64,000 bases of DNA from Candidatus Schekmanbacteria bacterium RIFCSPLOWO2_02_FULL_38_14. Its GTDB lineage: Bacteria > Schekmanbacteria > GWA2-38-11. Position numbers and translations under genes: made by a program. The notes under the pieces are model-generated. The model saw only the letters and a list, made by a program, of their open reading frames with translations. It had not been told where the DNA came from and ran no database searches. How positions within the stretch are numbered: position 1 is the first letter of the stretch; the number at the start of each line of letters is the position of its first letter. The DNA lies in contig MGDH01000022.1 in assembly GCA_001790855.1 (NCBI GenBank), positions 7,116 through 71,115 of the forward strand, given 5' to 3'. Positions 41,279-60,230 of the stretch are shown here, piece by piece.

Positions 41279-42220
41279 GTGAAAAAAGCTTTAGTAACTG
41301 GCGGGGCAGGTTTTATTGCTTCCCACGTTGTTGATGCCCTGATTGAAAGAGGTTACGAGGTTGCAATAGTTGATAACCTTTCAACAGGGTATGAGAGAAA
41401 CCTCAACTCAAAGGCTAAATTCTATAAAATGGATATAAGGGACGAGAACCTTAAAGATGTTTTTGATAAGGAAAAACCCGAACTTGTAAACCATCATGCT
41501 GCTCAGATGGATGTGAGAAAATCTGTTACAGACCCGATTTATGATGCTCAGGTAAATGTTCTTGGCTCTTTAAACCTTCTTGAAAACTGCAAAAGAGTTG
41601 GAGTTAAAAAGATAGTTTATGCTTCAACAGGAGGCGCGGTTTATGGTGAGCCAAGCCCCGATATTTTTCCTGTTGATGAGAAGTGTGATGTTGATCCACT
41701 TTCCCAGTATGGAATTACAAAGCATGTTGTAGAGCATTATTTATCACTTTATTATAAACTCTACAGCTTGAGATATGCTGTTCTGAGATACCCCAATGTC
41801 TATGGACCGAGGCAGGATCCTCACGGTGAGGCAGGAGTTGTTGCAATTTTCACAGAACAGATGCTTGAAGGAATTACTCCAAAGATTTTTGGTGATGGTT
41901 CTAAAACAAGAGACTACGTATTTGTTGGAGACATAGTAAAAGCTAATATGATTGCCATTGATAAAGGGGAGAATGATGTTTTTAATCTTGGCTGGGGCAG
42001 GGAAATTACTGATTTTGAAATATTTGATGCAATACGTATAGCATTGGGGCTGAAAATTAAACCAATTTATGCAGAGAAACGGCTTGGAGAGATAGACAGA
42101 ATCTGCCTTGATGCTTCAAAGGCAAAAAAAGTTTTAGGCTGGCAGCCAACTGTATGCCTAAAAGAAGGGATTGCAAAGGCAGTTGAGTATTACAGGAAGA
42201 AAAAAACAGGCTCATTGTAA
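41279..42220 (+). CDS. NAD-dependent sugar-nucleotide epimerase/dehydratase (GalE-like SDR), GTG start
   Basis: VTGGAGFIASHVVDAL plus a YxxxK catalytic pair at YGITKHVVE. It terminates the heptose cluster and is possibly a GDP-heptose epimerase. Confidence 0.7.
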   Translation: MKKALVTGGAGFIASHVVDALIERGYEVAIVDNLSTGYERNLNSKAKFYKMDIRDENLKDVFDKEKPELVNHHAAQMDVRKSVTDPIYDAQVNVLGSLNLLENCKRVGVKKIVYASTGGAVYGEPSPDIFPVDEKCDVDPLSQYGITKHVVEHYLSLYYKLYSLRYAVLRYPNVYGPRQDPHGEAGVVAIFTEQMLEGITPKIFGDGSKTRDYVFVGDIVKANMIAIDKGENDVFNLGWGREITDFEIFDAIRIALGLKIKPIYAEKRLGEIDRICLDASKAKKVLGWQPTVCLKEGIAKAVEYYRKKKTGSL

Positions 42221-42763
42221 GATTTCGCTTTTCCTAAAAAGTGCTTCAAATTCATAACCTTCCTTTTGAACATTTTTCCTTCCACCCTCTTCGCGGTCAA
42301 CAAGGGCAATTACTTTTATTATTTTACCTCTTTCATTTTCAACTGCTTTTATTATTTTTAGTGTTGAAGCCCCTGTTGTCACAACATCCTCAACAATTAT
42401 AACCCTGTTTCCGGGTTTGAATATTCCTTCAATCATTTTCATTGTTCCATGGGATTTTGCCTCTTTTCTCACATAGAAACCCGGGACAGGTTTTTCTGAC
42501 AACGCACTTGCAATTGAAACAGCGCTTACAATCGGGTCAGCACCAAGGGTTGGACCTCCTATGCAGTCAAAATCCAGATGTTTTATTTTTTTAAAAATAA
42601 TTTCTCCTATTAATTTTGCTCCCATTGGATGCAATGATGTTCTGCGCATATCAATATAGAAATTACTCTTTTTCCCGGAAGCTAATATGAATTCTCCTTT
42701 AAATACTGATTCTTTTTTTATAATATCAAGCAACTGTTTTTTAAGTTTCTCAATTTTATCCAT
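42212..42763 (-). CDS. pyrE: Orotate phosphoribosyltransferase
   Basis: PRPP-binding VIIVEDVVTTGAST and upstream conserved blocks. Length is 183 aa. Confidence 0.85.
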   Translation of the reverse strand: MDKIEKLKKQLLDIIKKESVFKGEFILASGKKSNFYIDMRRTSLHPMGAKLIGEIIFKKIKHLDFDCIGGPTLGADPIVSAVSIASALSEKPVPGFYVRKEAKSHGTMKMIEGIFKPGNRVIIVEDVVTTGASTLKIIKAVENERGKIIKVIALVDREEGGRKNVQKEGYEFEALFRKSEILQ

Positions 42764-42807: not shown

Positions 42808-44316
42808 TTAATTATATTCTATAATTTCAGCTTGGATTTTTCCAATTATATTTACAAGTGGACTTATATCATCAAAGGTTTCTCCTTCGACGAATTTTAT
42901 ATGAGTTGCATCAGCAGGAATCTGGTTGAATGTAGGGTCAATAGCAACCCATTTCCCAGCATAGCTTTCAGCCCAGGCATGATAGAGAAAACCTTTTTCC
43001 TCCATATAGACTATCCCTGAAACGATTTTTGTTGGTATGCCAGAAGCCCTTGCAAGGGCTGTGTAGAGATAAGTGTGCGCCTGACATTCTCCTTTTTTTG
43101 AATGAAGAACGTTCAGTGCTGAGAATGAATCAGAAAAATCATTTTCAACTTCCCTACTTACCCACTGTACAAGCTTCTTTATTGCAATAAAAGAGTTTTT
43201 TTCATCTCCAACTACTTCTTTGGATTTTTCAATAATCTCCTGATTGGAACTCTGGATGTAAATAGACGGTTTTAGATATTTATTCAGCAGAGGCTCATTT
43301 ATTGGCAGCAATGATGGTTTTTCTATTTCAGCAGGGATTAAATCTATTTTATACTCAACCTTTGAAATGCCATTTTTAGCAAGCTTATATGCTTTCTGTC
43401 TCTCATCAGAGATTATAGCATCTTCCTCATCCATTCCTACCAGCTTTAAATGGAGAGTTTTAACATTCTTGGGGTTGTTGATAATTTTATCAGCTTTTAC
43501 CAGGCTGAAATCAAGAAGGATGTCATCTTTAGAGAGGCTTTCCTGATATATAAATTTTTTTGCAGAGATTTCATCTTCTTTCATTGAGATTAAAAGCCCC
43601 CCCATTTCAATTTCAATAAGGCTTTCACCATCTTTATTTATCCAGCTATCTGCGCTTACAAGTCCAATTGATGTTCTGACCTTGAATGCAGGTTCATCAC
43701 AGAGTTCATTTTTTTCATAGGAAAGAATTTTTTGTTTTATGTTCTGGAGTGATTGTATTTCTAAAAGGTAACTCTGATAGCTAAAAACATCTCCAATTTT
43801 AAATCCTTTAAGAAAAGGATAGAGATATGGTGCAGTTGAGGAATATAGTTTATTTTTTAATTTAAATTTTTGGGAATGGGTTAAGTTTTCATCTACAATT
43901 TTAACTGTAAGTTCTTCATCTTTAACTTCACCATTCATAATAACCTTTTTATCCCCAATCCTCTCCTCTCCGGAGAAGCTAATAAGAGAAAGGTCTGGAT
44001 TTACGAGGTCTGTTTCTTTAAGATTTATTTCTTGCTTAAAACCTAAAAAGCTGAATTTTAGAAGTGCTTCTGATGTTATTTTGTAGACTTCAGGGTTGTC
44101 CTGATATTTTTCAATCTTGTAATGGTTAAACCCTACTTTTTTCTGCCCGTTGAGTATTATCCCGAACCATGATTCATTATGCTTGAGGTTAGATAGATTT
44201 TCAAATGGCTTGACCGGCTCAGTGAGTGGGATCTTCTTTGCATACATCCATGAGAAATTACAGCATGCTGAAAGAAAAAACGGAGAAATTAAAATTAAAA
44301 ATGTTTTATGTTTCAT
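42808..44316 (-). CDS. Transglutaminase-like domain lipoprotein
   Basis: N-terminal lipobox FLSAC. C-terminal GECQAHTYLYTALARASGIPTKIVSGIVY...YHAWAESY is a transglutaminase-like Cys-His core. Confidence 0.6.
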   Translation of the reverse strand: MKHKTFLILISPFFLSACCNFSWMYAKKIPLTEPVKPFENLSNLKHNESWFGIILNGQKKVGFNHYKIEKYQDNPEVYKITSEALLKFSFLGFKQEINLKETDLVNPDLSLISFSGEERIGDKKVIMNGEVKDEELTVKIVDENLTHSQKFKLKNKLYSSTAPYLYPFLKGFKIGDVFSYQSYLLEIQSLQNIKQKILSYEKNELCDEPAFKVRTSIGLVSADSWINKDGESLIEIEMGGLLISMKEDEISAKKFIYQESLSKDDILLDFSLVKADKIINNPKNVKTLHLKLVGMDEEDAIISDERQKAYKLAKNGISKVEYKIDLIPAEIEKPSLLPINEPLLNKYLKPSIYIQSSNQEIIEKSKEVVGDEKNSFIAIKKLVQWVSREVENDFSDSFSALNVLHSKKGECQAHTYLYTALARASGIPTKIVSGIVYMEEKGFLYHAWAESYAGKWVAIDPTFNQIPADATHIKFVEGETFDDISPLVNIIGKIQAEIIEYN

Positions 44317-44459: not shown

Positions 44460-45231
44460 ATGAAAAAAAGATTGATCCTAATAAATGTTTGCTTGCTGGT
44501 TTTATTAAGTTTTTTATCATTTGAATACTTGCAAGCAGGTTATAGTGTTGGTGGAAAAAAGGGTAGTAAAATCACAAAGGTTCAGCTTTTACCTCAGACT
44601 GCAAAGGTTAAGGTTGGAAAGACAAGGAAATTTACTGCAAATGTAATTGGCAAGGGCAAGTTTAACAGGAGTGTATTATGGTCTGTTGATGGCGGAGATG
44701 TTGACGGTACATTTTCTTCTACAGGGAGTAAACAAGCGACCTATCAAGCCCCTGATTCTGTTCCTGAAGGTGGAAAGGTAATAATTCCGTGCAACAAGCA
44801 ATGGTGATAGTTTAGTCTCAGGAACAGCAAACATTACAATCTTAGGAGTTTCGACTACAACAACAACTACAACCACTACTTCAACCACAACAACCACTAT
44901 TCCAACAGCTATTCCAGGAAGCAGCGTTAACAATACAATCACAATTGAAAATTTTTCCTTTAGCCCTATTAATATAAGCGTTGACTCGGGAACTACAATA
45001 ACTGTTACAAATAAAGACGGAAGCGGGCACTCAGTGACAAGCCAGGCTAAAGCAGGAGATTTTAAATCAGGCTCAGTTGGCGGAGTTTCTTTTGACACAG
45101 GTTTATTTACAACTACTGACCAAACAATTACGATTCCATCTGATGCGGTTTCAGGAACTGTTATTCCATATTTTTGCACACTTCACAAATCCTCTATGTC
45201 AACTAAAAACGGCTATGTGACTGTGGAATAA
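44460..45231 (+). pseudogene. Secreted Big_2 domain / Thr-rich linker / cupredoxin-domain protein, interrupted by a single-base frameshift near 44788
   Basis: Signal peptide MKKRLILINVCLLVLLSF. Big_2-like KVKVGKTRKFTANVIG...WSVDGG...ATYQAP...GGKVII continues in the +1 frame as ATSNGDSLVSGTANITILGV. Then a Thr/Ser-rich linker. Then ITIENFSFSPINISVDSGTTITVTNKDGSGHSV...YFCTLHKSSM carries type-1 copper ligands H, C-x2-H-x3-M. Removing one base in CCGTGCAAC restores a single 256-aa ORF. Confidence 0.55.
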
Positions 45232-45589: not shown

Positions 45590-45730
45590 TTATGTTTAAG
45601 TTCCAAATTCTAATATCTAAATCCTAAACAAATTCCAAATTCTAATCACCTAAATTCAAAACAAATTTGAAGATTTGAATTTTGGATTTAGATATTGTTT
45701 AGGATTTCGAATTTAGGATTTAATCCCACT
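45590..45730. repeat. AT-rich palindromic intergenic repeat cluster (GTTTAGGATTTCGAATTTAGGATTT and its complement)
   Basis: Left part TTCCAAATTCTAATATCTAAATCCTAAACAA and right part GATATTGTTTAGGATTTCGAATTTAGGATTT are mutual reverse complements. Family members occur at 27468, 47394-47500, 49430-49571 and 51975-52040. Confidence 0.6.
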
Positions 45731-45735: not shown

Positions 45736-46587
45736 TCATTTCCACGCAATTAATATGCTTATGTACGGTGATTTTATTGCTTCCTGTGCTTCCTTGTCAA
45801 AAAAGTAGTAATTGCTATAATATTTATCAAGCTCTGCTTTTACATCACTGTATAGCAGAGTTTTAGCGCCTATTTTTGAAAATGCCTTGTCATATCCATA
45901 AATCTTTCCTGTGATACTAAGCCAGTCTCCGAGAACAAGGATATCTGCAGCTTTTGCAATGTTTGCAATTGAACTTATGCCTGCATAGGTTATTGTGTAG
46001 CGCTCGTATAAAAGGGCTGGTGGAGTTATAGAGGCGAGGAGTTCTTTTGATGGTGATTCCTTAATGTCCCAGAGAAACGGGTTTATTTTAACTTCTGGGA
46101 AATCTTCTTTTAGCTTATCTATTACTTTATTTATTACAGGTTTTGACTCGGTGACAACAAGTGGAAAATAGTTTTTTTTACTTTTCATTGCTTTGCAGGC
46201 AAGACGTGTTAGTTTGCCGTTTCCTGCGCCTATTTCCAAAAGAGTTTTAGGTTTGATTGCTCCAGCAAGTGTGATTGCAATTTCTACAACTGTTTCCCCG
46301 AAAAACTGGTGAAAAACTCCGCCTGAAATTGCTGCAAAGGCTTCTCTCAGTTTAGGGCTGTTCCAGTCAAACTCTCCAAGGTTTTCCATTTCAATCAAAA
46401 TCTTCATTGCCCGCAGTTCGTTGTGGAATGCTTTTGGAATTTTATTTTCATCTACCGGTTGGCGATGATAAACCTTTTCTGACGCTTCAGCCCAGATTTC
46501 CCAGTTTTCAAAATGCTCTATCTGAAAACGAGTATATCTTTCTTGAAGAGCTACGAGTTTATCTTTTACAAGCTGGTGGTTAAGCAT
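45736..46587 (-). CDS. Hypothetical protein, possible class I SAM-dependent methyltransferase
   Basis: LLEIGAGNGKLTRLA resembles SAM-binding motif I (E/D-x-G-x-G-x-G). No further motif support. Confidence 0.3.
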   Translation of the reverse strand: MLNHQLVKDKLVALQERYTRFQIEHFENWEIWAEASEKVYHRQPVDENKIPKAFHNELRAMKILIEMENLGEFDWNSPKLREAFAAISGGVFHQFFGETVVEIAITLAGAIKPKTLLEIGAGNGKLTRLACKAMKSKKNYFPLVVTESKPVINKVIDKLKEDFPEVKINPFLWDIKESPSKELLASITPPALLYERYTITYAGISSIANIAKAADILVLGDWLSITGKIYGYDKAFSKIGAKTLLYSDVKAELDKYYSNYYFFDKEAQEAIKSPYISILIAWK

Positions 46588-46637: not shown

Positions 46638-47393
46638 TTATCCCTGTTGTACGAGCTTTTTTACTTTTTCAACAACATCCTTACTTTCTGAAAATCCTTT
46701 TGGACATTCAACAACGCATTCAGATGGCTTTTCGCATTTAAGGATTCCAAGTTCCCTTAACTCATGGATTCTTGCATCTCTTGTTGCATCTCTTGCATCA
46801 AGGATGAACCTATATGATTTTACAATGCTGGCTGGGCTTAAAAAAGAGCTGTCCTTATCGAGTACCATACAATCTGAATGGCATACAGCACAAAGTGTGC
46901 ACTGGGAGATCTTTGTGAGAGTATTGAAATCATCAGAATAATTAACCCTGAATTCACCTGATTCCGGAATTTTTGAAAAATCCTTTACAAGCCATGGCTT
47001 TGCTTTTTTCAAATTTTCTATGAAGGGTTCAAGGTCAACAACGAGGTCTTTAATGAGATTAAAATGCTTTAATGGCTCAATTACTATTACCCCGTTTTTA
47101 GGGAGTATGTCCTTTGCCTGAGTATTACAGGCGAGCATTGCCTTTCCATTAATGCGGACTGCGCAGGAACCACAGATGGCGCTTCTGCATGAACGTCTAA
47201 AGGTCAGTGTTCCATCAATTGTTTCTTTTATCTTAATCAGGGTATCAAGAACAGTCTCTCCGCCGGTGATTTTAATCTTGTAGTTTTTAAAATGTGGTTT
47301 GGGGTCTGTATCCTTATTGAACCTCTGGATTTCAAGGGTGATTTGTTTGTCCTTCATTTTTGCTCCTTTAGTAATTATAAGTTTAAATGACAA
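46638..47393 (-). CDS. sdhB: Succinate dehydrogenase / fumarate reductase iron-sulfur subunit
   Basis: 2Fe-2S motif FRRSCRSAICGSCAVRINGKAMLAC, then CxxCxxC...CP cluster motifs. Length is 251 aa. Confidence 0.85.
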   Translation of the reverse strand: MSFKLIITKGAKMKDKQITLEIQRFNKDTDPKPHFKNYKIKITGGETVLDTLIKIKETIDGTLTFRRSCRSAICGSCAVRINGKAMLACNTQAKDILPKNGVIVIEPLKHFNLIKDLVVDLEPFIENLKKAKPWLVKDFSKIPESGEFRVNYSDDFNTLTKISQCTLCAVCHSDCMVLDKDSSFLSPASIVKSYRFILDARDATRDARIHELRELGILKCEKPSECVVECPKGFSESKDVVEKVKKLVQQG

Positions 47394-47500
47394 AATCCAA
47401 ATTTCAAATCAATAACAAAATCCAAATGTTAAAAGTTTTAATCATTGGAGCTTTGAATTTCATTTGAACTTTGAGATTTAGCATTTGTCATTAGCTTGTC
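47394..47500. repeat. AT-rich intergenic repeat (AAAATCCAAAT / GAATTT units) between frdA and frdB
   Basis: AAAATCCAAATTTCAAATCAATAACAAAATCCAAAT...TTTGAATTTCATTTGAACTTTGAGATTTAG shares ATCCAAAT/GAATTT unit motifs with the 45590, 49430 and 51975 repeats. Confidence 0.45.
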
Positions 47501-49177
47501 TTAATAAACCCTTTTCTGTGGCTGATACTTTGTTACAGACACTGGCTCGTAGGAAATATTTATTTTTCCATCCTTGCCTTTTTTTGCGATAGTATGCTTC
47601 ATCCAGTTTTTGTCATTTCTTTCAGTATAGTCATTCCTGTAATGTGCTCCTCTGCTTTCCTTCCTGTTCAGGGCACCAAGGGCTATAATCTCAGAAATCG
47701 TAAGAAGGAACTCCATCTCAATGACTGAAGTGAGCTGTGTATTGTAAACAGTGCCTTTGTCCTGGATAAAAACTTTTTTTGCCCTTTCCTGAAGTTTCTT
47801 TATTTCTTTAAGAGCCTGTTCTATTTCATTACCGACTCTAAAGACCCCTACTTTGAATGTAAGAATTTCTGAAAGTTCTTTTCTTATTGCAGAGGATGAT
47901 TCTTTTCCTTTACGGTCAACAAGCTTCTTTATCCTTTTCTCTTCATCTTTTAGAATATTTTCGCTTATCTTGGAAAACTCAGCGGATGATACAAATTTTT
48001 CTAAATTTCTTCCGACTCTTCTGCCAAAAACAACTGTCTCAAGAAGTGAATTTCCTCCAAGCCTGTTGGCTCCGTGGACACTTACGCAGCCACACTCTCC
48101 AACCGCATACAGCCCTTTTATGTTTGTTTCTCCGTTAACATTATTCCTGATTCCGCCCATGGAATAGTGCTGTGCGGGTTGAACAGGCATTGGTTCTTTA
48201 ACTATGTCAACACCTGCAAATTTCTTTGCAAGCTCTTTTACCTGAGGGATCTTTTCATTTATTTTTGCTTCACCAAAGTGAGTTACATCGAGGTGAACAT
48301 ATTCATTCTCAAATCCTCTTCCTTCTCTTACCTCTATTTGTATACACCGAGAAACAACGTCTCTTGGGGCAAGTTCCATTTTTGATGGAACATATCTTTC
48401 CATAAACCTCTCATCTTTGTTGTTTTTAAGATATCCGCCTTCACCCCTTACACCTTCTGATACGAGAATGTTGGTTCCAAAAAGAGTTGTTGGGTGGAAC
48501 TGGACAAATTCCATATCAGCAAGAGGTGTTCCTATCTCATAGGCAAGAGCCATTCCATCACCGGTATTTATATGAGCATTGGTAGTTCGAGCAAAGGCTC
48601 TCCCATATCCCCCTGTTGCTAAGACTATTGCCTTTGTTTTCAAGAGTTCAAAATTACCTTTTTGCATATTATAGCAAATAGCACCTTTGCAGACCCCATC
48701 TTCTGCGATCAATTTGGTGACAAATCGTTCATTATAGATTTTTACATTGCTCTTAAGAAGTTGTTCATAGAGGAGGTGAAGAAGGGTATGACCTGTTAAG
48801 TCTCCAAAAAAACAAGCTCGAGGAAAGCTTGCGCCTCCTAGCTCTCTCTGGGCAATCTTTCCATCCTCAGTCCTGCTAAAGATTGCTCCCATGTGCTCTA
48901 TTTCGTAGATGTTTTCAGGGGCTTCCTTAATGAGAATCTCAATGGCGTTCTGGTCACCAAGATAATCGCCTCCCTTTACAGTATCAAAAATATGGCTTTC
49001 AAGAGTATCTTCAGGGTTAAGTACTGCATTGATTCCTCCCTGCGCTGCACCTGAATGGGAGCGTGTGGGATAGACTTTTGAAATAATTCCTACGTTGGCA
49101 TATTTAGATGCTTCTATTGCAGCCCTCATTCCTGCAATTCCTGCGCCGACTATGACTATGTCGTGGTAAATCATCAA
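47501..49177 (-). CDS. sdhA: Succinate dehydrogenase / fumarate reductase flavoprotein subunit
   Basis: FAD-binding [13 protein letters not shown]. The covalent-FAD histidine context [13 protein letters not shown] is present. Catalytic ...HYSMGGI... region. Length is 558 aa. Confidence 0.9.
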
Positions 49178-49193
49178 TTAATCTCCCTTCTTA

Positions 49194-49406
49194 TTAATAT
49201 AGTCTTACTATTTCTATTGCATCAACAGGACATTTTTCAAGGCAGAGATTGCACAGAGTGCATTCGTCTTCATTTGCCTCAACAGAGATTATGGTGTTAT
49301 CTTTCTTGTCAAAAATATTCACAGGACATATTTTGACACATTCACCACAGTCCTTGAATCCGCGGCATGTTTTCTGGTTGATTTTTATGTTTATGAAAAT
49401 ACTCAT
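49194..49406 (-). CDS. 2x[4Fe-4S] dicluster ferredoxin (70 aa)
   Basis: CRGFKDCGECVKICP and CTLCNLCLEKCP are two CxxCxxCxxxCP motifs. It lies 16 nt upstream of frdA on the same strand. Confidence 0.75.
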   Translation of the reverse strand: MSIFINIKINQKTCRGFKDCGECVKICPVNIFDKKDNTIISVEANEDECTLCNLCLEKCPVDAIEIVRLY

Positions 49407-49429
49407 CCTTTTCTCCCTCTGTGTATGAG

Positions 49430-49571
49430 TTATAAATCCTAAATTCTAATATCTAAATTCCCTGCCTGTCGGCAGACAGGTAAACAATATCAAAATTCCA
49501 ATTTTTAAAACTGTTTTGGATTTTGGTCATTTGAATTTGTTTAGAATTTAGAGCTTAGGCTTTAGAATTTT
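49430..49571. repeat. AT-rich intergenic repeat cluster plus GC hairpin CCTGTC-GGCA-GACAGG
   Basis: TAAATCCTAAATTCTAATATCTAAATTCC is the reverse complement of the 45696-type repeat. TTTGTTTAGAATTTAGAGCTTAGGCTTTAGAATTTT is a forward copy. A GC hairpin lies at 49461..49480. Confidence 0.55.
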
Positions 49572-50468
49572 TTATGATACATTCTTTCTAATAAGCTCTA
49601 TTATCTCAGAAAATTTTTCTGCAACAAGGATTCCTGCATCCCTGAATTTTTCTATTTTGCCTTTTGTACTTCCTCTATTTCCTTCAACAATTGCTGCTGC
49701 GTGGCCAAAACGGATACCCGGCATCTCATCAGCGAATCTTCCTGCAACAAATGCGATTATTGGAAGTTTGATTTTGTTTTCCTTTACAAACTCTGCAAGA
49801 AGTTCTTCTGCTGTACCTCCGGGTTCGCAGAAGATTACGATTGCCTTTGTCTGGTTGTCTTTCTGGAAAAGTGGAACGAGGTCAAGGTAGTTTGAACCGA
49901 CAATTGCATCTCCTCCAACGCTAATGCAGGTGCTCTGTCCGATTCCGTTTAATGTCAGGAGGTTGGCAATCTCTGTTGTCATTCCTCCGCTTCTTGAGAT
50001 TATTCCTATATTCCCTTCACTGTAAGCCTTCTTTACATCATCAACTCTTCCGCCAACCATTCCAATTTTGGTCTTGTGAGGCGATATTATTCCAAGGGAG
50101 TTTGGTCCTATTACTGTTGCGCCTTTTTCTCTTGCAAAAGCAACTATCTCAACTACATCCTTTCTTGGAACTCGTTCTGTTACAATGACAACAAGTTTAA
50201 TGCCATTATCAATCGCCTCAAGGCTTGCACCTTTTACCATTCCGGGCGGAACTGATATTATGCTTGCTTCAGCAGGGTGTACGGTTATTGCTTCTTTTAC
50301 TGTATCATAGACAGGGACACCGTAAACATCCCATCCGCCCTTGCCGGGAGTTATTCCTGCAACAACTTTTGAGCCGTAATCAAGTAAATCCCTCGTAAAA
50401 GTGGTTGCCTCTCTGCCGGTAATTCCCTGAATGATTATCCTTGTATTTTCATCAGCCAAGATTGACAT
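49572..50468 (-). CDS. sucD: Succinate--CoA ligase [ADP-forming] alpha subunit
   Basis: The CoA-binding N-terminus RIIIQGITGREATTF and the SRSGGMTTE segment are present. The expected phosphohistidine loop around GHAAAI is present. Length is 298 aa. Confidence 0.9.
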   Translation of the reverse strand: MSILADENTRIIIQGITGREATTFTRDLLDYGSKVVAGITPGKGGWDVYGVPVYDTVKEAITVHPAEASIISVPPGMVKGASLEAIDNGIKLVVIVTERVPRKDVVEIVAFAREKGATVIGPNSLGIISPHKTKIGMVGGRVDDVKKAYSEGNIGIISRSGGMTTEIANLLTLNGIGQSTCISVGGDAIVGSNYLDLVPLFQKDNQTKAIVIFCEPGGTAEELLAEFVKENKIKLPIIAFVAGRFADEMPGIRFGHAAAIVEGNRGSTKGKIEKFRDAGILVAEKFSEIIELIRKNVS

Positions 50469-50506
50469 CTCATTCTCCTTAATTTATCTCTTGAACTTTA
50501 TTTTTT

Positions 50507-50623
50507 GTCATTGCGAGCGACCAACGGGAGCGTGGCAATCTCATCTTTTACTTGGGAATGTTGTAACATGTTACTATAATTACTGAATTGAGATTGCTTC
50601 GTCGCTTTGCTCCTCGCAATGAC
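50507..50623. repeat. Palindromic repeat element, copy 2, inserted between sucC and sucD
   Basis: Arms TGTCATTGCGAGCGA...GGCAATCTC and GAGATTGCTTCGTCGCTTTGCTCCTCGCAATGAC match copy 1 at 27332..27438. It occupies most of the 182-bp sucC-sucD spacer. Confidence 0.7.
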
Positions 50624-50650
50624 TTTTTAAAACTGTTCACTAATCACTGT

Positions 50651-51829
50651 TCACTTACTCGCTCTCTCAACAGCCATTCTTGCGGCTTCATCTATTGAAA
50701 CGGTTCTGTCGCAGTATGGCACACCATATTTCTTCAATATTCTGAACCCTTCATCCTCCCAAGCGCCTGGAATTCTGAAAACGGTTATGGTTTCTGAAGG
50801 AACCTTGCCGCTTTCAATTACGCCTTTAACTACTCCTCTTGCTACCAGGTCAACTCTGGTGTTGCTGACTACATTCATTATGACTGCAATTTTATTGATT
50901 CCTGGCTTTGAAAGGATGTGCTTGACAAGTTCTTTAACTTTGAAAACAGAAGGGTTCCCTCCAATCTCACAGTAATTGGCAGGTTTGCCGCCATATTTTT
51001 TTATTGCGTCAAATGATGTCAGGCTCGCTCCACCGCCGCCAATCAGAAGACCGAGATTCCCGTCAAATTCAATCATTCTTCCTGCAACTCCACGATGGTC
51101 CATTTTGTCAATTTCCGCTGCCTTTTTCTCAAATTCTGTCTGCTTCTTTGACTGGCTTTCCCTTTCACCAAATTCTGCGACAAGACTCTTTTGGCGGTAG
51201 AGGGCATCGTCATCAATCTCAATATGTCCATCAAGGGCTATGAATTTCCCGTCCTTTGTTTTTCCAAGAGGGTTTATTTCAGCAAGGGTTGCATCATATT
51301 TCAGAAATACCTGAACGAGCCTGTAAAGAACCGATGAAATCTGGAGCAGGTCATTTCCATTTATTCCTGCCTGCGCGACCATTTCTCTTGCATGGTGTTC
51401 CTGAAACCCCTCAATGATGTTAAAACTTTTTCTTACAATTTTTTCAGGATTGGTTTTTGCCAGTTCTTCGATATCAACCCCGCCTTCAGTGCAGAAAATT
51501 ACAACGGGGAGTTTTCTTGTAGTGTCGTAGGTTGCAGCCATAAAGAGCTCTTTTTCAAGAGCTATCTGGTCTTCAACAAGAAGCTTTGAAACAAGGTGGT
51601 TCTTAATAGTGCTTCCGAGAAGCTGCTTTCCTTTATCTTTGGCTTCTTTTAAATCTTTTGAGAAAAGAACACCGCCTGCTTTTCCTCTGCCGCCTGTTGG
51701 TATCTGTGCTTTGATTACAGAAGGAGTTTCCGCCTTGATTTCATCAACAGACGAGACTACCTGCCCTTTGGGTGCCGGAATGTTGTTTGCCTGAAAAATT
51801 TTTTTACTTTCAAATTCATAAAGTCGCAT
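50651..51829 (-). CDS. sucC: Succinate--CoA ligase [ADP-forming] beta subunit
   Basis: MRLYEFESKKIF...IPAPKG ATP-grasp N-terminus. C-terminal ligase-CoA domain ...NPLG...GGGA.... Length is 392 aa. Confidence 0.9.
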   Translation of the reverse strand: MRLYEFESKKIFQANNIPAPKGQVVSSVDEIKAETPSVIKAQIPTGGRGKAGGVLFSKDLKEAKDKGKQLLGSTIKNHLVSKLLVEDQIALEKELFMAATYDTTRKLPVVIFCTEGGVDIEELAKTNPEKIVRKSFNIIEGFQEHHAREMVAQAGINGNDLLQISSVLYRLVQVFLKYDATLAEINPLGKTKDGKFIALDGHIEIDDDALYRQKSLVAEFGERESQSKKQTEFEKKAAEIDKMDHRGVAGRMIEFDGNLGLLIGGGGASLTSFDAIKKYGGKPANYCEIGGNPSVFKVKELVKHILSKPGINKIAVIMNVVSNTRVDLVARGVVKGVIESGKVPSETITVFRIPGAWEDEGFRILKKYGVPYCDRTVSIDEAARMAVERASK

Positions 51830-51926: not shown

Positions 51927-52040
51927 CGAAGCAATCTTTTTAAAAAGCTGACAGCAGACAGCTATCAGCTTTGAGCATTTGGAATTTGAATAATTTAGAT
52001 ATTGTTTAGGATTTAGGATTTTGAATTTAGAAATTAATAT
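51927..52040. repeat. Partial palindromic-element fragment (CGAAGCAATCT + GCTGACAGCAGACAGCTATCAGC) followed by AT-rich GTTTAGGATTT repeat copy
   Basis: It shares CGAAGCAATCT and the GCTGATAGCTGTC motif with copy 1. It is followed by GATATTGTTTAGGATTTAGGATTTTGAATTTAG. Confidence 0.5.
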
Positions 52041-52043: not shown

Positions 52044-53018
52044 CTAACTTGCCAACAACCTTGCTGCTTCCTTTGCAAAATATGTGATTATCATATCTGC
52101 GCCTGCGCGTTTGATTGATAGGAGGCTTTCCATCATGATTCGTTTCTCATCTATCCATCCGAGTTTACCGCCTGCTTTTATCATGGAGTATTCACCGCTT
52201 ACCTGAAAGGCTGCAAGAGGGATATTGAACTGCTGTTTAGCCCTGTAGATTATATCAAGATAGGGAAGGGCAGGTTTTACCATTACAATGTCAGCGCCTT
52301 CCTCTATGTCCTGAGCTATTTCTCTTATTGTCTCATCAGAGTTTGCAGGGTCTATCTGGTGAGATTTTCTGTCTCCAAATTCTGGCCTTGATTCTGCTGC
52401 TTCCCTGAAAGGAGCATAAAAAGATGATGCGTATTTTGCTGCATATGACATTATTGATATATCTTCAAAACCGTTTTCATCAAGAATTTTTCTGATTGCT
52501 TTCACTCTTCCATCCATCATATCTGATGGGGCAACAATATCAGCGCCTGCTTCAGCGTGGCTTAAGGAAATTTTTGTCAAAGTATCTATTGTCGCGTCAT
52601 TATCAATTTTTCCTTTTTTAATCACTCCGCAGTGGCCATGGTTTGTGTATTCACACAGACAGATATCAGTGATTACAATAAGTTCAGGAATGTTGTTTTT
52701 AATCCTTCTGATTGCCTTTTGAATTATTCCATCCTTTGTATAGGCTTCTGAGCCAAACTCATCCTTTTTCTTAGGAATTCCAAACAGGATTATTGCGGGG
52801 ATGTTTAATTTACTGACTTCCTTTGCTTCTTTAAGGAGGTTGTCAATTGACAACTGAAAGCATCCGGGCATCGACTTAATTCCATTCCTGACATTTTTCC
52901 CTTCGCAGACAAAAACCGGGCATATAAGGTTGTCAGTTGAAAGCCTTGTTTCTCTGACCATCCTTCTTATATTTTCATTCCTTCTAAGCCGACGCAAACG
53001 GTGAGTTGGGTAAGACAT
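52044..53018 (-). CDS. hemB: Porphobilinogen synthase (delta-aminolevulinic acid dehydratase)
   Basis: Active-site region ...[19 protein letters not shown]-like ([18 protein letters not shown]). The metal-binding Cys-rich segment [14 protein letters not shown] is present. Length is 324 aa. Confidence 0.9.
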
Positions 53019-53140
53019 AATATATTATCTTTCTATTTAAATTCTAAAGCCAATTCTCCTTTATAAAACTCTTTTGGCAACCTGTGTCTTTTTTTTACAA
53101 ACATTTTATTCTCGCAGGCTAAAGCCTGCGGCTACCATTG

Positions 53141-54664
53141 TTAATTAATATTATTAAAATAATTATCAATCGCTTCTACCATTCCTTTAATGGTGTATTC
53201 TTTTGGCATGATATCTGCTTTCATTTCAAACTCTTCAATTGCCTTTGATGTTACAGGACCAATTGAAGCTATGCTTATCTTATTAAAATAATAGATTATT
53301 TCTTTTTTTGTAAATAAATTAAAAAAGCTTTTTACCCCGGAAGGGCTTGTAAATGCAACAACATCTGCGTTGTTTTCTTTTAAAAGAGATTTAACTTTAT
53401 TGCAGTTGACCTTTTCATTCTGAATTCTGTATAAGACTATTTCATCAACTTTTGCTCCTATTTTTTTGAGCCCTAAAGGCAATACCTTGCTTGTTTCCTG
53501 TGCCCTCGGGATTAAAATATTTTTTCCCTTAAGAGAATATTTTTTTAAGCCTGACAGAAGTGCTTCTGAATTATACTTTTTTGGGATAAAGCTTGCTTTG
53601 ATTCCATATTTTTTTAGTTTTCCACCGGTTACTTTTCCGATAACTGCAAATTTAATTGCCTTAAAATCCTTTAAATGTTTTCCTTTTAAAATAAATCTTT
53701 TCATGAACAAATCTATTCCGTTCTGGCTTGTAAAGATTATCCAGTGGTATTTATTTATTTCCTTTATTGCTTTATCAATTATGAGAAAGTTTTCAACCGG
53801 AACTATTTTTATAACCGGAAGCTTAATTGCTTCTGCGCCGAAATTTTCAAGATGAGATGCTATTTTCGAGGCTCCGGGCTCCGGGCTTGTTATAAGAAAT
53901 TTTTTATTAAAGAGAGGTTTCTTTTCATACCATCTAAGCTTTTTGCTTAAATTCACCACATCTCCAATAACAATTACTGCTGGAGGTTTTACCCTTTTAG
54001 TATTAGTCTTATTTTTTAATTCTTTAATAGTCCCGGTCAGAATTTCCTGCCGGGGTGTTGTACCTGAACTTATTATTGCTATCTGAGCAGAAGGGGATTT
54101 GCCAAGCCTTATGAAGTCGTCAAGTATTGAGCCAAGATTTCCTGCTCCCATCAGTATTACCAGAGTTCCTTGCAGGCTTGCTATCTCCTTTGTGATTACC
54201 GGCAGTGAAGAGCCATCTTTTTTATGTCCTGTAATGAAAGTAACAGCAGAGGCATAGTCTCTGTGCGTCAAAGGAATCCCTGCATAGGTAGGAACTGCGA
54301 TTGCAGAGCTGACTCCGGGAACTATTTCAAAGGGAATTCTTTTTTCTGCAAGTGCAAGGGCTTCTTCTCCTCCTCTGCCAAAGATAAAAGGGTCTCCTCC
54401 CTTTAAACGGACGATTGTCTTCCCTTCCCTTGCTTTCTTTATGATTAACCTGTTAATTTCATCCTGTTTTATTGAATGGGATTTTGGTTTTTTGCCAAAG
54501 TATATCAGCTCAGCATCTTCTCTTGCGTAGGATAGAATGTCCTGATTAATGAGGCGGTCATAAACGACAACATCAGCATTTTTAATGCAGTTCACTCCTT
54601 TAAGGGTAATGAGTGAAGGATCTCCGGGACCGGCACCAACAAGATAAACTTTTCCTTTGTTCAT
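53141..54664 (-). CDS. Bifunctional uroporphyrinogen-III C-methyltransferase / uroporphyrinogen-III synthase
   Basis: The N-terminal half KVYLVGAGPGDPSLITLKG...VVVYDRL matches the SUMT tetrapyrrole methylase domain (cobA-like). The C-terminal half of about 250 aa has HemD-like topology. Total length is 507 aa. Confidence 0.8.
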   Translation of the reverse strand: MNKGKVYLVGAGPGDPSLITLKGVNCIKNADVVVYDRLINQDILSYAREDAELIYFGKKPKSHSIKQDEINRLIIKKAREGKTIVRLKGGDPFIFGRGGEEALALAEKRIPFEIVPGVSSAIAVPTYAGIPLTHRDYASAVTFITGHKKDGSSLPVITKEIASLQGTLVILMGAGNLGSILDDFIRLGKSPSAQIAIISSGTTPRQEILTGTIKELKNKTNTKRVKPPAVIVIGDVVNLSKKLRWYEKKPLFNKKFLITSPEPGASKIASHLENFGAEAIKLPVIKIVPVENFLIIDKAIKEINKYHWIIFTSQNGIDLFMKRFILKGKHLKDFKAIKFAVIGKVTGGKLKKYGIKASFIPKKYNSEALLSGLKKYSLKGKNILIPRAQETSKVLPLGLKKIGAKVDEIVLYRIQNEKVNCNKVKSLLKENNADVVAFTSPSGVKSFFNLFTKKEIIYYFNKISIASIGPVTSKAIEEFEMKADIMPKEYTIKGMVEAIDNYFNNIN

Positions 54665-55575
54665 ATTCTTAGAATTTCTTTTCCGCCATTCTCCAATAAT
54701 TTTTCTGCAAGCCTGATTCCTATCTCTTCAAAAGAGTTTATTTCTCCTTCCATGCTATCCCTGATAACTTTCTTTCCATCTTTTGTAGCAACAAGCCCTG
54801 TCAGTTTTAGTTTTTTATTTAAAACCTCTCCATAGGCTGCAACAGGAAATCTGCATGATGCTCCAATTTTTTTTGTGAAAACTCTTTCTGCAGAAACAGC
54901 AATAAGGCTCTCCCTGTTGTTGAGAAAGCTGACGAATTCCTGTATATCAGTATCATCATTTCTTGTTTCAATACCAAGCGCGCCCTGCCCGGCATCAGGG
55001 AGCATAATATCAGTTGAGATGTATTCAGTAATTTTATCTTTTAATCCAAGCCTTATAAGTCCTGCTGCTGCAAGAACGATTGCGTCATAATCTTCATTTT
55101 CTAACTTCTTAAGCCTTGTATCAACATTGCCTCTTATGTCTTTTATCAACAGGTCTTTCCTTGAATTTAAAATCTGAGCTTTCCTTCGCAGGCTTGATGT
55201 GCCAACAATTGAGTTGTGAGGCAATTCCTTAAGCTTCCCTCTTTTTGAAATCAGCACATCCCTTGGGTCTTCCCGTTCAGTTATTGCAGCTATACAAAGT
55301 TCATCAGGAATAGTGACTGGCACATCTTTCATGCTGTGGACACCAATATCGATTTCTTCTTTCAAGAGTGCTTCTTCAATTTCCTTTATGAACATATCAT
55401 TTTTGCTAAATTCTCTTAATGGCTTGTCAGGTAATTTGTCGCCATAAGTTTTAATTTTGATTATTTTGACCTCTAATAGTGGATATTTTTTAACGATTTG
55501 CGCTTTTACCCAATCAGACTGTTTTAAGGCAAGAGGGCTTTTCCTTGTGCCAAGCCTCAGCTTTGTAATAACCAT
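54661..55575 (-). CDS. hemC: Hydroxymethylbilane synthase (porphobilinogen deaminase)
   Basis: LRLGTRKSPLALKQ N-terminus. The dipyrromethane cofactor Cys region ...GASCRFPV... is present. Length is 304 aa. Confidence 0.85.
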   Translation of the reverse strand: MVITKLRLGTRKSPLALKQSDWVKAQIVKKYPLLEVKIIKIKTYGDKLPDKPLREFSKNDMFIKEIEEALLKEEIDIGVHSMKDVPVTIPDELCIAAITEREDPRDVLISKRGKLKELPHNSIVGTSSLRRKAQILNSRKDLLIKDIRGNVDTRLKKLENEDYDAIVLAAAGLIRLGLKDKITEYISTDIMLPDAGQGALGIETRNDDTDIQEFVSFLNNRESLIAVSAERVFTKKIGASCRFPVAAYGEVLNKKLKLTGLVATKDGKKVIRDSMEGEINSFEEIGIRLAEKLLENGGKEILRI

Positions 55576-55613
55576 TGGCAGTTTTCAATAAACGGGTTTG
55601 AGAGAATCAACAA

Positions 55614-56165
55614 TTAATTGTGAATATTCTTTCTGCCATTTCTGGCTACTAAAGATAAACGCATAGATTTCAATCTATCTCTAATCCTTGCCAATCTTTC
55701 AAGCTCTGCTCCATATTCCTTCCCAACGATATCTTCAAGCATTATTCTTAACTTTTTTGCAAAAGCCGGATATCTCCCGCTTGTGGAAATCGCTATCACA
55801 AGGTCTCCTCTCCGTATCACAGAAGGCATTATAAAGTCACATAGTTCAGGGCCATCAGCTACATTAACCAGCACTTTTCTTTTTTTAGCCTCTTTTGCAA
55901 CTTCCTTGTTGATTTCAGAATCATCAGTTGCCACCACTGCAAGAAATGTATCCTTCAAATCCCCAACCCGGTATTTTCTGCAAATAACACTAATCTCAGA
56001 TTTGTCTGCTAATCTCCTGATGTTTTTTGTGATTTTCGGGCTAACCACCATCATCTTTGCCCCACAATTAAGAAGGGACATTATTTTCCTCTCAGCTACT
56101 TTTCCACCACCTATAACTACACATTTTTTCCCATTGATATTTAAATGTATTGGATAATATTTCAT
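55614..56165 (-). CDS. sirC: Precorrin-2 dehydrogenase / sirohydrochlorin ferrochelatase (siroheme synthase N-terminal domain type)
   Basis: NAD-binding VVIGGGKVAERKI after MKYYPIHLNINGKKC. Length is about 183 aa. Start is placed at the internal Met (56165). Confidence 0.7.
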   Translation of the reverse strand: MKYYPIHLNINGKKCVVIGGGKVAERKIMSLLNCGAKMMVVSPKITKNIRRLADKSEISVICRKYRVGDLKDTFLAVVATDDSEINKEVAKEAKKRKVLVNVADGPELCDFIMPSVIRRGDLVIAISTSGRYPAFAKKLRIMLEDIVGKEYGAELERLARIRDRLKSMRLSLVARNGRKNIHN

Positions 56166-56438
56166 AGCAAAATAAAAGTAGAACCTGTTAATTGTTTGCA
56201 AACTATAGTTTGTAAGAATGGTAATGTCAAATGCAGTATTTAATTCCTTTAAACACCATCCCCATTACTTCCACTCTGCCTGTGCGGAGCACGCCTGACT
56301 GCGAGCATCGCTCAGGCAGGCAGACAGGTCTCTTTTGTTCTTTTATTGTCAAAGTTATGTTTTCCATAACCTGACATTTTAACCTTGCAGTTAACCCCTG
56401 TCATTTTTACTTTGCTACCACAGTATAATTAAAATGCC

Positions 56439-56507: not shown

Positions 56508-57641
56508 ATGTATGAACTTACAGAAGAACAGAAGATGCTCAAAGAACTTGCAAGACAGATTGCCGAGGAAGAAATAAAACCTATCAGGGCAGAGCTTGAT
56601 AATACAGGAGAGTTCCCTTATAAAGTAGTAAAGGCTCTTGTTGACGCTGACCTTATGGGTTTGTTTATTCCAACTGAATATGGCGGTTCAGCCCAGGGAA
56701 CTTTTGAGATGTGTCTTGTTATGGAAGAGCTTTCAAAGGCGTGCGGAGGAATAGCCCTTTGCTATGGCGCAACAGCCCTTGGAACTTATCCAATACTTCT
56801 TTTTGGCAGCGAGGAGCAGAAAAAAAAATATCTTCCAAGGATTGTAAAGGGGGAGCTTGCTGCATTTGCTCTTACAGAGGCTGAAGCAGGAAGCGATGCG
56901 GGTGGTGTCAGGCTGAAGGCTGAAGCTGGTGGCGATTATTATGTTCTTAACGGCGTAAAGCAGTGGATAACCAACGGAGGGGTTGCAGAAATCTACACAG
57001 TAATTGCTGCAACCAATAAAGCAAGGGGAAGCCGAGGGCTGTCAGGATTCATAGTTGAAAAGAATACACCCGGCTTTACTTTCGGGAACAAGGCAGACAA
57101 GATGGGCATAAGGGCTTCAATAACAAGCGAGCTTGTTTTTGAGGATTGCCACGTACCAAAGGCTAATATGCTTGGGAAAGAGGGAATGGGTTTTCCTGTT
57201 GCAATAAAAACCCTTGATAAGGCAAGGCCCGGTGTTGCAGCGCAGGCGCTTGGAATTGCGCAGGGAGCCCTTGATGAAGCTGTTGCATATTCAAAGACAA
57301 GGGTTCAGTTTGGGAAAGCAATCTCAACCTTTCAGACAATTCAGGTTATGCTTGCAGATATGGCAACAAAAACTGAGGCTGCAAGGGCGCTTGTTTACTC
57401 AGTGGCAAAATATATTGACAGCGGAGCTTCTGACATTTCAAAAGAATCCGCAATGTGCAAGCTCTATGCCTCTGATGTTGCAATGGAGGTAACAACTGAT
57501 GCTGTGCAGATTCTTGGCGGATACGGATATATGAGGGATTACCCTGTTGAAAAGATGATGCGTGATGCAAAGATAACCCAAATCTATGAAGGCACAAACC
57601 AGATTCAGAGGCTTGTAATTGCGAACAGGCTGCTGAGGTAA
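56508..57641 (+). CDS. Acyl-CoA dehydrogenase (short/medium-chain, butyryl-CoA dehydrogenase-like)
   Basis: MYELTEEQKMLKELARQIAEEEIKPIRAELD...GGSAQGTFE...ALTEAEAGSDAGG...QIYEGTNQIQRLVIA match the full ACAD signature. Length is 377 aa. Confidence 0.85.
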   Translation: MYELTEEQKMLKELARQIAEEEIKPIRAELDNTGEFPYKVVKALVDADLMGLFIPTEYGGSAQGTFEMCLVMEELSKACGGIALCYGATALGTYPILLFGSEEQKKKYLPRIVKGELAAFALTEAEAGSDAGGVRLKAEAGGDYYVLNGVKQWITNGGVAEIYTVIAATNKARGSRGLSGFIVEKNTPGFTFGNKADKMGIRASITSELVFEDCHVPKANMLGKEGMGFPVAIKTLDKARPGVAAQALGIAQGALDEAVAYSKTRVQFGKAISTFQTIQVMLADMATKTEAARALVYSVAKYIDSGASDISKESAMCKLYASDVAMEVTTDAVQILGGYGYMRDYPVEKMMRDAKITQIYEGTNQIQRLVIANRLLR

Positions 57642-59687: not shown

Positions 59688-59774
59688 AATGATTAAGAAT
59701 ACTAATTTAATTAAAAAAATCCATGATTTTAATCATAGTTTATTGAAAAAAGTTTAGCAGAAAGCTTATATCCC

Positions 59775-59804
59775 ATAAAATAAAAACGCACCCAAAGGGG
59801 TGCG
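59775..59804 (-). terminator. Rho-independent terminator downstream of the moaD-like gene
   Basis: On the minus strand, hairpin CGCACCC-CTTT-GGGTGCG (7-bp GC-rich stem) is followed by TTTTTATTTTAT. Confidence 0.6.
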
Positions 59805-59843
59805 CAACATTTTGCAATTTAAAATTTCCAATTTTAAATTTAT

Positions 59844-60092
59844 TTAAGATGCTCCTCCTGCAACAGGTGGGAATATGGCTACACGGTCTCCGTCTTTTAA
59901 AAGACAGCTGAGTTCAGCATGGACTCCGTTCACAATAATTATCTTTGTTTCTTTTTCAGGGATTCCAAGCTGGTGAAGCAGCCCCTGTATGGTAAGACCT
60001 TCTTTGGCGGAAATCTTTTTGCCTTCTTTCAAATCAAGTCCGGGCAAATATTTTAATAAAGTAGCATATGTCCTGACTTCAATATCTGCCAT
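59844..60092 (-). CDS. MoaD/ThiS-family ubiquitin-like small protein ending ...VAGGAS (Gly-Gly followed by two extra residues)
   Basis: 82 aa. Beta-grasp-like composition. C-terminus DRVAIFPPVAGGAS has the GG motif of sulfur carriers plus a 2-residue tail. It sits immediately downstream of the AOR gene. Confidence 0.55.
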   Translation of the reverse strand: MADIEVRTYATLLKYLPGLDLKEGKKISAKEGLTIQGLLHQLGIPEKETKIIIVNGVHAELSCLLKDGDRVAIFPPVAGGAS

Positions 60093-60201: not shown

Positions 60202-60230
60202 TAACTTCTCGAAGAAACATATTCTTACCC

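Follow-up and report, generated by a model that had tools for sequence, protein, structure and literature searches.

Introduction

How does a fumarate reductase that lacks a membrane anchor obtain its electrons? The question is posed by an frdA-frdB gene pair, and by a gene for a 70-residue ferredoxin (fdx) directly ahead of it, in a 64-kb stretch of DNA (the window, to which all coordinates refer unless another locus is named) from the metagenome-assembled genome (MAG) of a Candidatus Schekmanbacteria groundwater bacterium from the Rifle aquifer. Anchor-less SdhAB/FrdAB pairs turn up repeatedly among anaerobes, in methanogens and in candidate phyla, and the gap in our knowledge of their electron donors limits the reconstruction of reductive and branched tricarboxylic acid (TCA) cycles from genomes. 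We find that frdAB belongs to a clade without adjacent anchor genes, that its FrdB has lost the residues of the quinone site, and that the ferredoxin belongs mainly to the succinyl-CoA-synthetase-like genes upstream and not specifically to the reductase. We propose, in a reading to which we give about an even chance, that a cytoplasmic two-subunit FrdAB without quinone coupling is attached here to a core of sucC-like, sucD-like and ferredoxin genes, forming a module that would lead from fumarate through succinate to succinyl-CoA. The genes concerned are the following (lengths in amino acids, aa):

50651-51829, minus strand: sucC-like ATP-grasp beta subunit of a nucleoside diphosphate (NDP)-forming CoA ligase, 392 aa (PF08442, E 2.6e-53)
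49572-50468, minus strand: sucD-like alpha subunit, 298 aa, with a GHAAA phosphohistidine motif (PF02629 and PF00549)
49194-49406, minus strand: fdx, putative dicluster ferredoxin, 70 aa, signature NEDECTLCNLC (Pfam Fer4, Fer4_7 and Fer4_21)
47501-49174, minus strand: frdA/sdhA flavoprotein, 557 aa (TIGR01812, PF00890, PF02910)
46638-47357, minus strand: frdB/sdhB iron-sulphur (Fe-S) subunit, 239 aa (NF004616, TIGR00384)

Results

Identity of the FrdA and FrdB subunits

Pfam and TIGR models, together with sequence motifs, confirm the frdA/frdB pair and upstream ferredoxin that a first-pass annotation had placed at 46638-49406. FrdA scores 779.9 bits on TIGR01812 (cut-off 567.3) and has the flavin adenine dinucleotide (FAD)-binding and C-terminal domains PF00890 and PF02910. 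The motif of the covalent-FAD histidine, also claimed at first pass, is present and aligns with E. coli SdhA (1nek_A) and M. smegmatis Sdh2 (6lum_A), as do the FHPT, RGEGG, HYSMGG and GANRLGG motifs of the catalytic His/Arg set; every dicarboxylate-binding residue of SdhA is conserved in the same alignments. The nearest solved structure is 6lum_A (536 bits), with 1nek_A at 481 bits. FrdB scores 230.5 bits on NF004616 (cut-off 228) and 205.9 bits on TIGR00384 (cut-off 88), gives a PDB match of 149 bits and was aligned to 6lum_B and 1zoy_B; all three cluster motifs are in place, CRSAICGSC...C for the 2Fe-2S, CTLCAVCHSDC for the 4Fe-4S and CEKPSECVVECP for the 3Fe-4S cluster. By these defining features FrdA and FrdB are assigned to the SdhA and SdhB families of the complex II superfamily. 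An identity of FrdA as L-aspartate oxidase was rejected on account of the covalent-FAD histidine, the cognate FrdB and the far lower scores of nadB models.

The open reading frame (ORF) of frdB spans 46638-47393, but with its AAGGAG ribosome-binding site the ATG at 47357 is the probable start of translation, giving the 239 residues that gene callers also chose. The start of frdA is an ATG with an alternative TTG 3 nt upstream; the distance of 16 nt from fdx given at first pass is that to the TTG, with 19 nt to the ATG, and a ribosome-binding site is present.

Absence of adjacent anchor genes and loss of quinone-site residues

The window pair resembles M. smegmatis Sdh2 (6LUM) and E. coli succinate:quinone oxidoreductase (SQR; 1NEK) in its covalent-FAD histidine, identical catalytic residues and three cluster motifs, but differs from both in that no SdhC/D, FrdC/D or SdhE/F gene lies beside it or in the loci of its clade, and in that its quinone-site residues are replaced. 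A hydropathy scan of ORFs of at least 80 aa within ~10 kb of frdAB revealed no credible membrane anchor; transmembrane segments were predicted only in a 167-aa ORF (44676-45179) and, as single-segment calls, in frdA and a 502-aa transglutaminase-like protein (42808-44316). The 167-aa ORF was rejected as an anchor, being of low complexity, overlapping an ORF on the opposite strand and not being seen in the relative L008 (locus numbers are our own), and is probably spurious. Searches by tblastn with an Sdh_cyt anchor (from L089) and a CCG domain (from L013) gave no match anywhere in the 64-kb window, in line with the earlier statement that no SdhC/SdhD-like genes flank the pair, and no GltD-like gene was found in the window.

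A scan of GTDB genomes with FrdA was swamped by the universal DMEFVQFH pattern and by mixed SdhA types, and recovered no Schekmanbacteria genome; its loci served as controls for anchor detection and as members of a tree. In this tree, computed by neighbour joining without support values from 107 FrdA sequences whose gene contexts are known, L005, L009/10, Desulfoscipio L104 and Pelotomaculum L101 cluster with the window FrdA and its relatives L008 and L021-L024; two further loci, L183 (64% FrdA identity) and L184 of Candidatus Magnetomorum (58%), stand outside the tree and were placed by identity only. Anchor genes co-occurring with frdAB were looked for at these six loci and at the slightly more distant Methanolobus L006/7 (fumC-frdA-frdB), which together make up the seven other sampled loci nearest to the window FrdA, and adjoin frdAB at none of them; at the six loci frdAB has neither a CCG gene nor any hydrophobic gene beside it. 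The same pipeline showed SdhC/D, single anchors with three transmembrane segments, Sdh_cyt fusions and SdhE-type proteins beside other SdhA clades, so the missing anchors of the frdAB clade are no failure of detection.

Tryptophan and histidine residues line the quinone site in the solved E. coli and porcine complex II; in E. coli numbering, the quinone-site residues of SdhB are Pro160, Trp164 and His207. A motif comparison of 80 FrdB sequences shows that SCPSYWWN and CHTIMNC of quinone-linked enzymes have become DCMVLDKD and CEKPSEC in the window FrdB, with the Pro, Trp and His replaced by Met, Asp/Lys and Glu, and that the former anchor face is now hydrophilic. Within this data set, anchored enzymes retain SCPSYWWN and CHT(I/L)xNC, and clade mates have CDKPHEC, CDNPEKC and CREPDRC at the CHTIMNC position. 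The anchor-less clade and the lost quinone-site residues together support a soluble, quinone-independent enzyme: FrdAB is probably soluble and uncoupled from membrane quinone and, with neither an anchor gene in the 64-kb window nor the quinone-site residues, is best placed outside the membrane-bound complex II classes A-F as these are defined by their anchors. The first-pass view that this is no classical membrane SQR is borne out on both counts.

The FrdB proteins of Desulfoscipio geothermicus L104 (9690-10331) and Pelotomaculum sp. L101 (5906-6547) have 213 aa and 9-10 Cys, without a full CxxCxxCxxxC, and probably bind one cluster fewer; in L104 the genes that come next encode a DUF1847 protein rich in Cys and a sigma-54 regulator resembling PrpR. 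L008, whose FrdA is 87% identical to that of the window, carries between hemB and sucC (2958-4869) a divergent FrdA-superfamily flavoprotein of 574 aa (28% identity to FrdA), immediately trailed by a second small ferredoxin-like ORF, a pair that is not in the window.

The ferredoxin and its genomic company

The sucC-like and sucD-like genes stand directly upstream of fdx-frdAB. Compared with the clostridial 2x[4Fe-4S] type (two CxxCxxCxxxCP motifs in ~55-80 aa), the ferredoxin has the Fer4 matches and the eight cysteines but deviates in its first motif, reading Cx5Cx2Cx3CP and then Cx2Cx2Cx3CP. A metagenome scan returned 219 relatives, from which 80 loci were fetched and counts taken over 76 distinct ferredoxins; these loci are short metagenomic contigs, the ORFs of which were labelled by simple BLAST against proteins of the window and of reference loci. 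In the family alignment (A1) Cys 14, 23, 27, 49, 52, 55 and 59 are invariant, and a Ser takes the place of the first motif's second Cys (Cys20 in the window ferredoxin) in 15 of the 76 family members (L001-L100); some members may carry a 3Fe-4S or Ser-ligated cluster.

At every locus with enough upstream sequence (27 of 27), the ferredoxin has SucC- and SucD-like genes at a distance of at most 3.5-4.5 kb. At 13 of 18 loci a FrdA-type gene follows no more than 5.5 kb downstream, and the next gene downstream is PrpD-like in 18 of 44 loci, frdA in six, all of them in the Schekmanbacteria group of the window, and an HpcH/CitE-like lyase gene in five. The commonest cluster, that of L089 (4998-14654), is widespread (also L043, L050, L078, L084 and many others) and reads, by Pfam, sucC, sucD, HpcH/CitE-like lyase, fdx, MmgE/PrpD-like, GntR, SdhC (Sdh_cyt), SdhA, SdhB and a dihydrodipicolinate synthase (DHDPS)-family gene. 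The Sdh enzyme has its own Sdh_cyt anchor in this cluster, and the ferredoxin stands among non-redox genes, between the CitE-like lyase and the PrpD-like gene. We found no description of such a cluster; because of its analogy with characterised itaconate/methylsuccinate clusters (PMC12290011), it may encode an anaerobic pathway of branched C5-dicarboxylates or of (methyl)citrate.

Other variants combine the same core with a TfrAB-like pair that has a CCG domain fused to it (L013), with a KorA/KorB-like oxoacid:ferredoxin oxidoreductase directly after the ferredoxin (L032, 1427-5786), with a 267-aa citrate-synthase-C-domain protein, citryl-CoA-lyase-like, after sucCD-fdx (L074, 5901-9012), with a xanthine-dehydrogenase-like set in place of any frdAB (L016-18), or with a flanking methylaspartate ammonia-lyase and dicarboxylate symporter (L038, 2037-8604). 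A second lineage labelled as Schekmanbacteria (GCA_003695725.1; L181/182, also L019/20/25) has sucC-sucD and, after a 19-nt gap, fdx; the genes beyond are unrelated, and the contigs fetched carry no frdAB. Outside the Schekmanbacteria group, the ferredoxin is found near anchor-less FrdAB at none of the seven loci nearest to the window FrdAB. Within the group, the order sucD-fdx-frdA is retained in all relatives (L008, L021-L024), and the spacing from fdx to frdA widens to 72-144 nt in close relatives.

The ligase pairing at all 27 loci, the occurrence of fdx without frdAB and that of frdAB without fdx identify the sucCD-like genes plus ferredoxin as the conserved unit, to which frdAB is attached as one of several modules. 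The link between ferredoxin and reductase drawn at first pass thus stands in part: the close spacing to frdA leaves the ferredoxin a reasonable donor, but its family is tied to sucCD-like genes throughout and to frdAB in one lineage. The accompanying caveat, that the ferredoxin might belong to a different unit, likewise proved half right, as it goes with the sucCD-like genes yet lies tight against frdA here. An NDP-forming CoA ligase gene or a cluster of ligase genes also stands just before frdAB in what we count as five of the seven contexts, among them the window, L005 (sucD-like), L009 (ACD-type) and L104 (sucCD-like, then PrpD); the context of L101 is PrpD.

The SucCD-like ligase

By fold family and phosphohistidine motif the SucCD-like pair is predicted to work as an NDP-forming dicarboxylate-CoA ligase. 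The SucC-like subunit reaches 289.9 bits on TIGR01016, under the cut-off of 375.55, and the SucD-like subunit 301.2 bits on TIGR01019, under 353.2; both are also below the cut-offs of the NCBIfam succinyl-CoA synthetase (SCS) equivalogs (SucC 288.5 against 370, SucD 298.5 against 336). Among PDB entries the SucC-like subunit matches Thermus SCS-beta with 194.6 bits and the large subunit of Hydrogenobacter citryl-CoA synthetase (CCS) with 182.2 bits, and the best match of the SucD-like subunit is the archaeal SCS-alpha 2yv2 (277.9 bits). The first-pass annotation had counted several further metabolic genes as neighbours. The ligase genes are indeed directly upstream, whereas those for a CoA-transferase (17166-18461), alanine dehydrogenase (18461-19573) and biotin carboxylase with a biotin carboxyl carrier protein (BCCP)-like protein (27498-29538) are 17-30 kb off and lie outside the locus.

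Discussion

Anchor-less A/B pairs are already known from genome surveys. A 2026 survey of genomes with a reductive TCA (rTCA) cycle used the label 'putative soluble fumarate reductase' for A/B pairs that lack C/D genes (PMC13147460). Such pairs, with no donor assigned to them, fall into the same category as the window pair but were catalogued, not characterised; for the window pair we can point to a specific clade, lost quinone-site residues and a neighbourhood of ligase and ferredoxin genes. Among the soluble homologues listed in a 2023 review of complex II there is no ferredoxin-coupled A/B enzyme (PMC10238741), and in the literature searched we found no description of a ferredoxin-coupled FrdAB, of a sucCD-fdx core or of a ferredoxin gene invariably joined to a ligase pair. 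For rTCA bacteria, CcsAB/SucCD and dedicated ferredoxins of pyruvate:ferredoxin and 2-oxoglutarate:ferredoxin oxidoreductases (PFOR and OGOR) have been described (PMC10052474). The window ligase, below the NCBIfam SCS cut-offs, has a SucC-like subunit about equally similar to SCS-beta and the CCS large subunit, and relatives of the core adjoin citryl-CoA-lyase (CCL)-like or KorAB-like genes.

Methanogen TfrAB, too, consists of two gene products without an anchor, being a soluble A/B enzyme that yields succinate in a reductive branch, but TfrB has ~490 aa with a C-terminal CCG (HdrB-like) domain, and the window FrdB has 239 aa and no CCG domain. Both Tfr models score below cut-off (TfrA NF004900, 539 against 718 bits; TfrB NF004898, 152 against 385), and by these comparisons FrdAB is not TfrAB. 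Miura et al. reportedly described in 2008 a soluble NADH-dependent five-subunit fumarate reductase from Hydrogenobacter thermophilus. That enzyme shares with the window pair the FrdA/FrdB core of a cytoplasmic fumarate reductase, an rTCA context and the lack of a quinone anchor, but also has FrdCDE. None of these is among the window neighbours (sucCD-like, fdx, methyltransferase-like and hem genes; no homology search with FrdCDE was made), where the only extra redox gene is that of the 70-aa ferredoxin.

In the module that we propose, covalently flavinylated FrdA would reduce fumarate to succinate with electrons that pass from a soluble donor, docked at the hydrophilic face near the distal 3Fe-4S cluster, through the three Fe-S clusters of FrdB to the flavin. 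The SucCD-like ligase would then turn succinate into succinyl-CoA, from which 2-oxoglutarate, glutamate and tetrapyrroles could be reached via an oxoacid:ferredoxin oxidoreductase encoded elsewhere; the sirohaem/haem genes upstream would fit such an anabolic branch from 2-oxoglutarate through glutamate to tetrapyrroles. The ferredoxin would be the low-potential carrier of this ligase-centred module and the sole candidate donor to FrdB within the cluster, and no dedicated subunit of FrdAB. In general it probably acts with oxoacid:ferredoxin oxidoreductases, in the conversion of succinyl-CoA to 2-oxoglutarate or in pyruvate reactions, as is suggested by L032, where KorAB adjoins the ferredoxin. 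A role as donor to FrdB is plausible but unproven; it is suggested by the tight fdx-frdA arrangement, by the hairpin-bearing spacers that part sucD from fdx on one side and frdA from frdB on the other, and by the lack of another redox partner in the cluster.

Several points weigh against this proposal. The anchor search spans the 64-kb window, so an anchor or other partner may be encoded elsewhere in the MAG. The ligase may act on a substrate other than succinate, because its scores are below the cut-offs and its relatives stand beside citryl-CoA-lyase-like or citramalyl-CoA-lyase-like genes. The direction of catalysis, fumarate reduction or succinate oxidation, cannot be read from the FrdA sequence, and the Gln at its flavin site is the residue of SdhA-type enzymes, where E. 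coli FrdA has a Glu. No oxoacid:ferredoxin oxidoreductase (OGOR) gene was found in the window, and for this reason the 2-oxoglutarate link is one that we infer. Finally, direct transfer of electrons from ferredoxin to fumarate would waste ~0.4 V, an uncommon loss in an anaerobe with little energy to spare.

The alternative that survives best, tentative as it is and on the whole unlikely, is a dedicated ferredoxin:fumarate oxidoreductase, in which the 70-aa ferredoxin would be a specific third subunit or obligate donor docking on FrdB. Co-oriented genes 16-19 nt apart, a gene order kept in all relatives of the Schekmanbacteria group, an FrdA-type gene of one kind or another near the ferredoxin at 13 of 18 loci, the hydrophilic face of FrdB and the lack of another redox partner in the cluster would all be expected of such an enzyme; yet the family trails sucCD-like genes without exception, persists without frdAB (L019/20/25, L181/182, L016-18), occurs where SdhAB has its own Sdh_cyt anchor, is absent at all seven of the nearest loci outside the group and stands well apart from frdA in close relatives. 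A more far-reaching reading, which we regard as doubtful, would make the sucCD-like and ferredoxin genes an obligate three-gene core, not described before, that in Schekmanbacteria couples reduced ferredoxin straight to a quinone-blind FrdAB without an anchor, a true ferredoxin:fumarate oxidoreductase feeding succinyl-CoA synthesis, with the same core serving in turn anchor-less FrdAB, TfrAB-like, anchored SdhCAB, CCL-like, KorAB-like and citramalyl-CoA-lyase-like modules.

It is improbable that a soluble FrdAB is fed by a partner encoded elsewhere, either a thiol/CCG-type protein (like methanogen TfrB, or SdhE) or an NAD(P)H-oxidising module of the kind in the five-subunit Hydrogenobacter enzyme, with the ferredoxin reserved for oxoacid oxidoreductases. 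Such a partner would explain how anchor-less clade members do without an adjacent ferredoxin, and the TfrAB-like pair with its fused CCG domain in L013 shows this type within a ferredoxin-family cluster; dsrAB-bearing lineages may also have Hdr-like proteins to offer, and Schekmanbacteria are reported to be dsrAB-bearing (PMC6018805). Against this, no CCG or GltD-like gene was found in the window, and FrdB, at 239 aa, has no extra domain and falls far below the TfrB cut-off.

We consider it very improbable that the enzyme acts on a substituted dicarboxylate (methylsuccinate, mesaconate) in a branched C5-dicarboxylate pathway. The clade mates Desulfoscipio L104 and Pelotomaculum L101 have frdAB in clusters with HpcH lyase, sucCD and PrpD genes, genes for a CitE-like lyase and a PrpD-like protein belong to the main cluster of the ferredoxin family, these gene families are characterised in itaconate/methylsuccinate degradation (PMC12290011), and methylaspartate ammonia-lyase flanks the variant L038. 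HpcH lyase and PrpD genes were not found in the window, however, where the neighbours serve tetrapyrrole biosynthesis and not catabolism, and the dicarboxylate-binding residues of SdhA are all conserved. Least likely of all is an ordinary membrane-bound succinate:quinone or quinol:fumarate reductase with distant anchor genes: sdh genes are split in some phyla (cyanobacterial and Nitrospirota loci scanned here have sdhA without adjacent sdhB), the search covered a 64-kb window of a MAG and the nearest solved FrdA structure is a membrane enzyme, but the seven other nearest loci show no anchor where anchored enzymes of the same scan show theirs, and the quinone-site Trp, His and Pro are gone.

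On our preferred reading of a quinone-independent FrdAB attached to a ligase-ferredoxin core, the locus defines a testable clade, a marker of lost quinone coupling (CHT to C(E/D)xP together with the loss of Trp) and one concrete candidate donor. That this ferredoxin family is invariably paired with a SucCD-like ligase family in many uncultured lineages suggests that dicarboxylate-CoA metabolism in anoxic sediments and aquifers has a mode of organisation yet to be characterised.

Flanking genes and intergenic repeats

The minus strand holds the whole co-oriented run, from the hem genes through sucC-like, sucD-like, fdx, frdA and frdB to a methyltransferase-like gene; besides the five genes given above, its features are:

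52044-56201, minus strand: sirC-like, hemC, cobA-hemD and hemB genes of sirohaem/tetrapyrrole synthesis (by Pfam families), upstream and of interest as context only
49425-49571, minus strand: long imperfect hairpin in the sucD-fdx spacer, resembling repetitive extragenic palindromic (REP) elements (inverted repeat I3; -42.1 kcal/mol, z = -6.5)
47370-47500, minus strand: hairpin repeat in the frdA-frdB spacer (inverted repeat I2; fold z = -4.2)
45736-46587, minus strand: S-adenosylmethionine (SAM)-methyltransferase-like protein, 283 aa (weak PF10017 match)

The tetrapyrrole run is conserved in part in L008. The methyltransferase-like protein is probably a neighbour and no part of the enzyme; it was rejected as a subunit, its gene being retained solely in the closest relatives (L001-L004, L008) and missing after frdB in L024. 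A scan for promoters and terminators gave counts no better than those in shuffled sequence, its sole result being a weak terminator-like hairpin between frdB and the methyltransferase-like gene.

Long imperfect palindromes of AAATCCTAAA/TTTAGGATTT-like units are present in the intergenic spacers of the run, at 45605-45721, 47386-47492, 49434-49570 and 52003-52021. The hairpins that they are predicted to form have fold z scores of -4.2 to -6.5, and the window contains 18 copies of the unit where 6.2 are expected by chance; the palindromes look like a REP-like repeat family inside an apparent operon. The 182-nt spacer between sucC and sucD (50469-50650) is filled by a different long inverted repeat, GTCATTGCGAGGAGCAAAGCGACGAAGCAATCTCA ... 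TGAGATTGCCACGCTCCCGTTGGTCGCTCGCAATGAC. Neither the cluster nor its long spacers matched any family in Rfam.

A PyrE-like phosphoribosyltransferase gene (42212-42763) lies 4 kb from frdB. In Candidatus Magnetomorum L184 (3691-9788) the anchor-less frdAB stands between pyrB-pyrC and a second dihydroorotase gene, and L183 has a gene for orotidine monophosphate (OMP) decarboxylase (12745-13434) near frdAB; a link between frdAB and pyrimidine synthesis may lie behind these neighbourhoods, or coincidence. Upstream of the hem-suc-frd run, an acyl-CoA dehydrogenase gene is divergently oriented (56508-57641, plus strand), and the clade mate L005 has another acyl-CoA dehydrogenase gene directly after frdB (8471-9598). 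Genes for an aldehyde:ferredoxin oxidoreductase, a ThiS/MoaD-like protein and a radical-SAM/SPASM protein occupy 58407-61967, 9-13 kb from frdA, and in the ferredoxin-family locus L013 (10463-12216) an aldehyde:ferredoxin oxidoreductase gene directly follows the TfrB-like gene.

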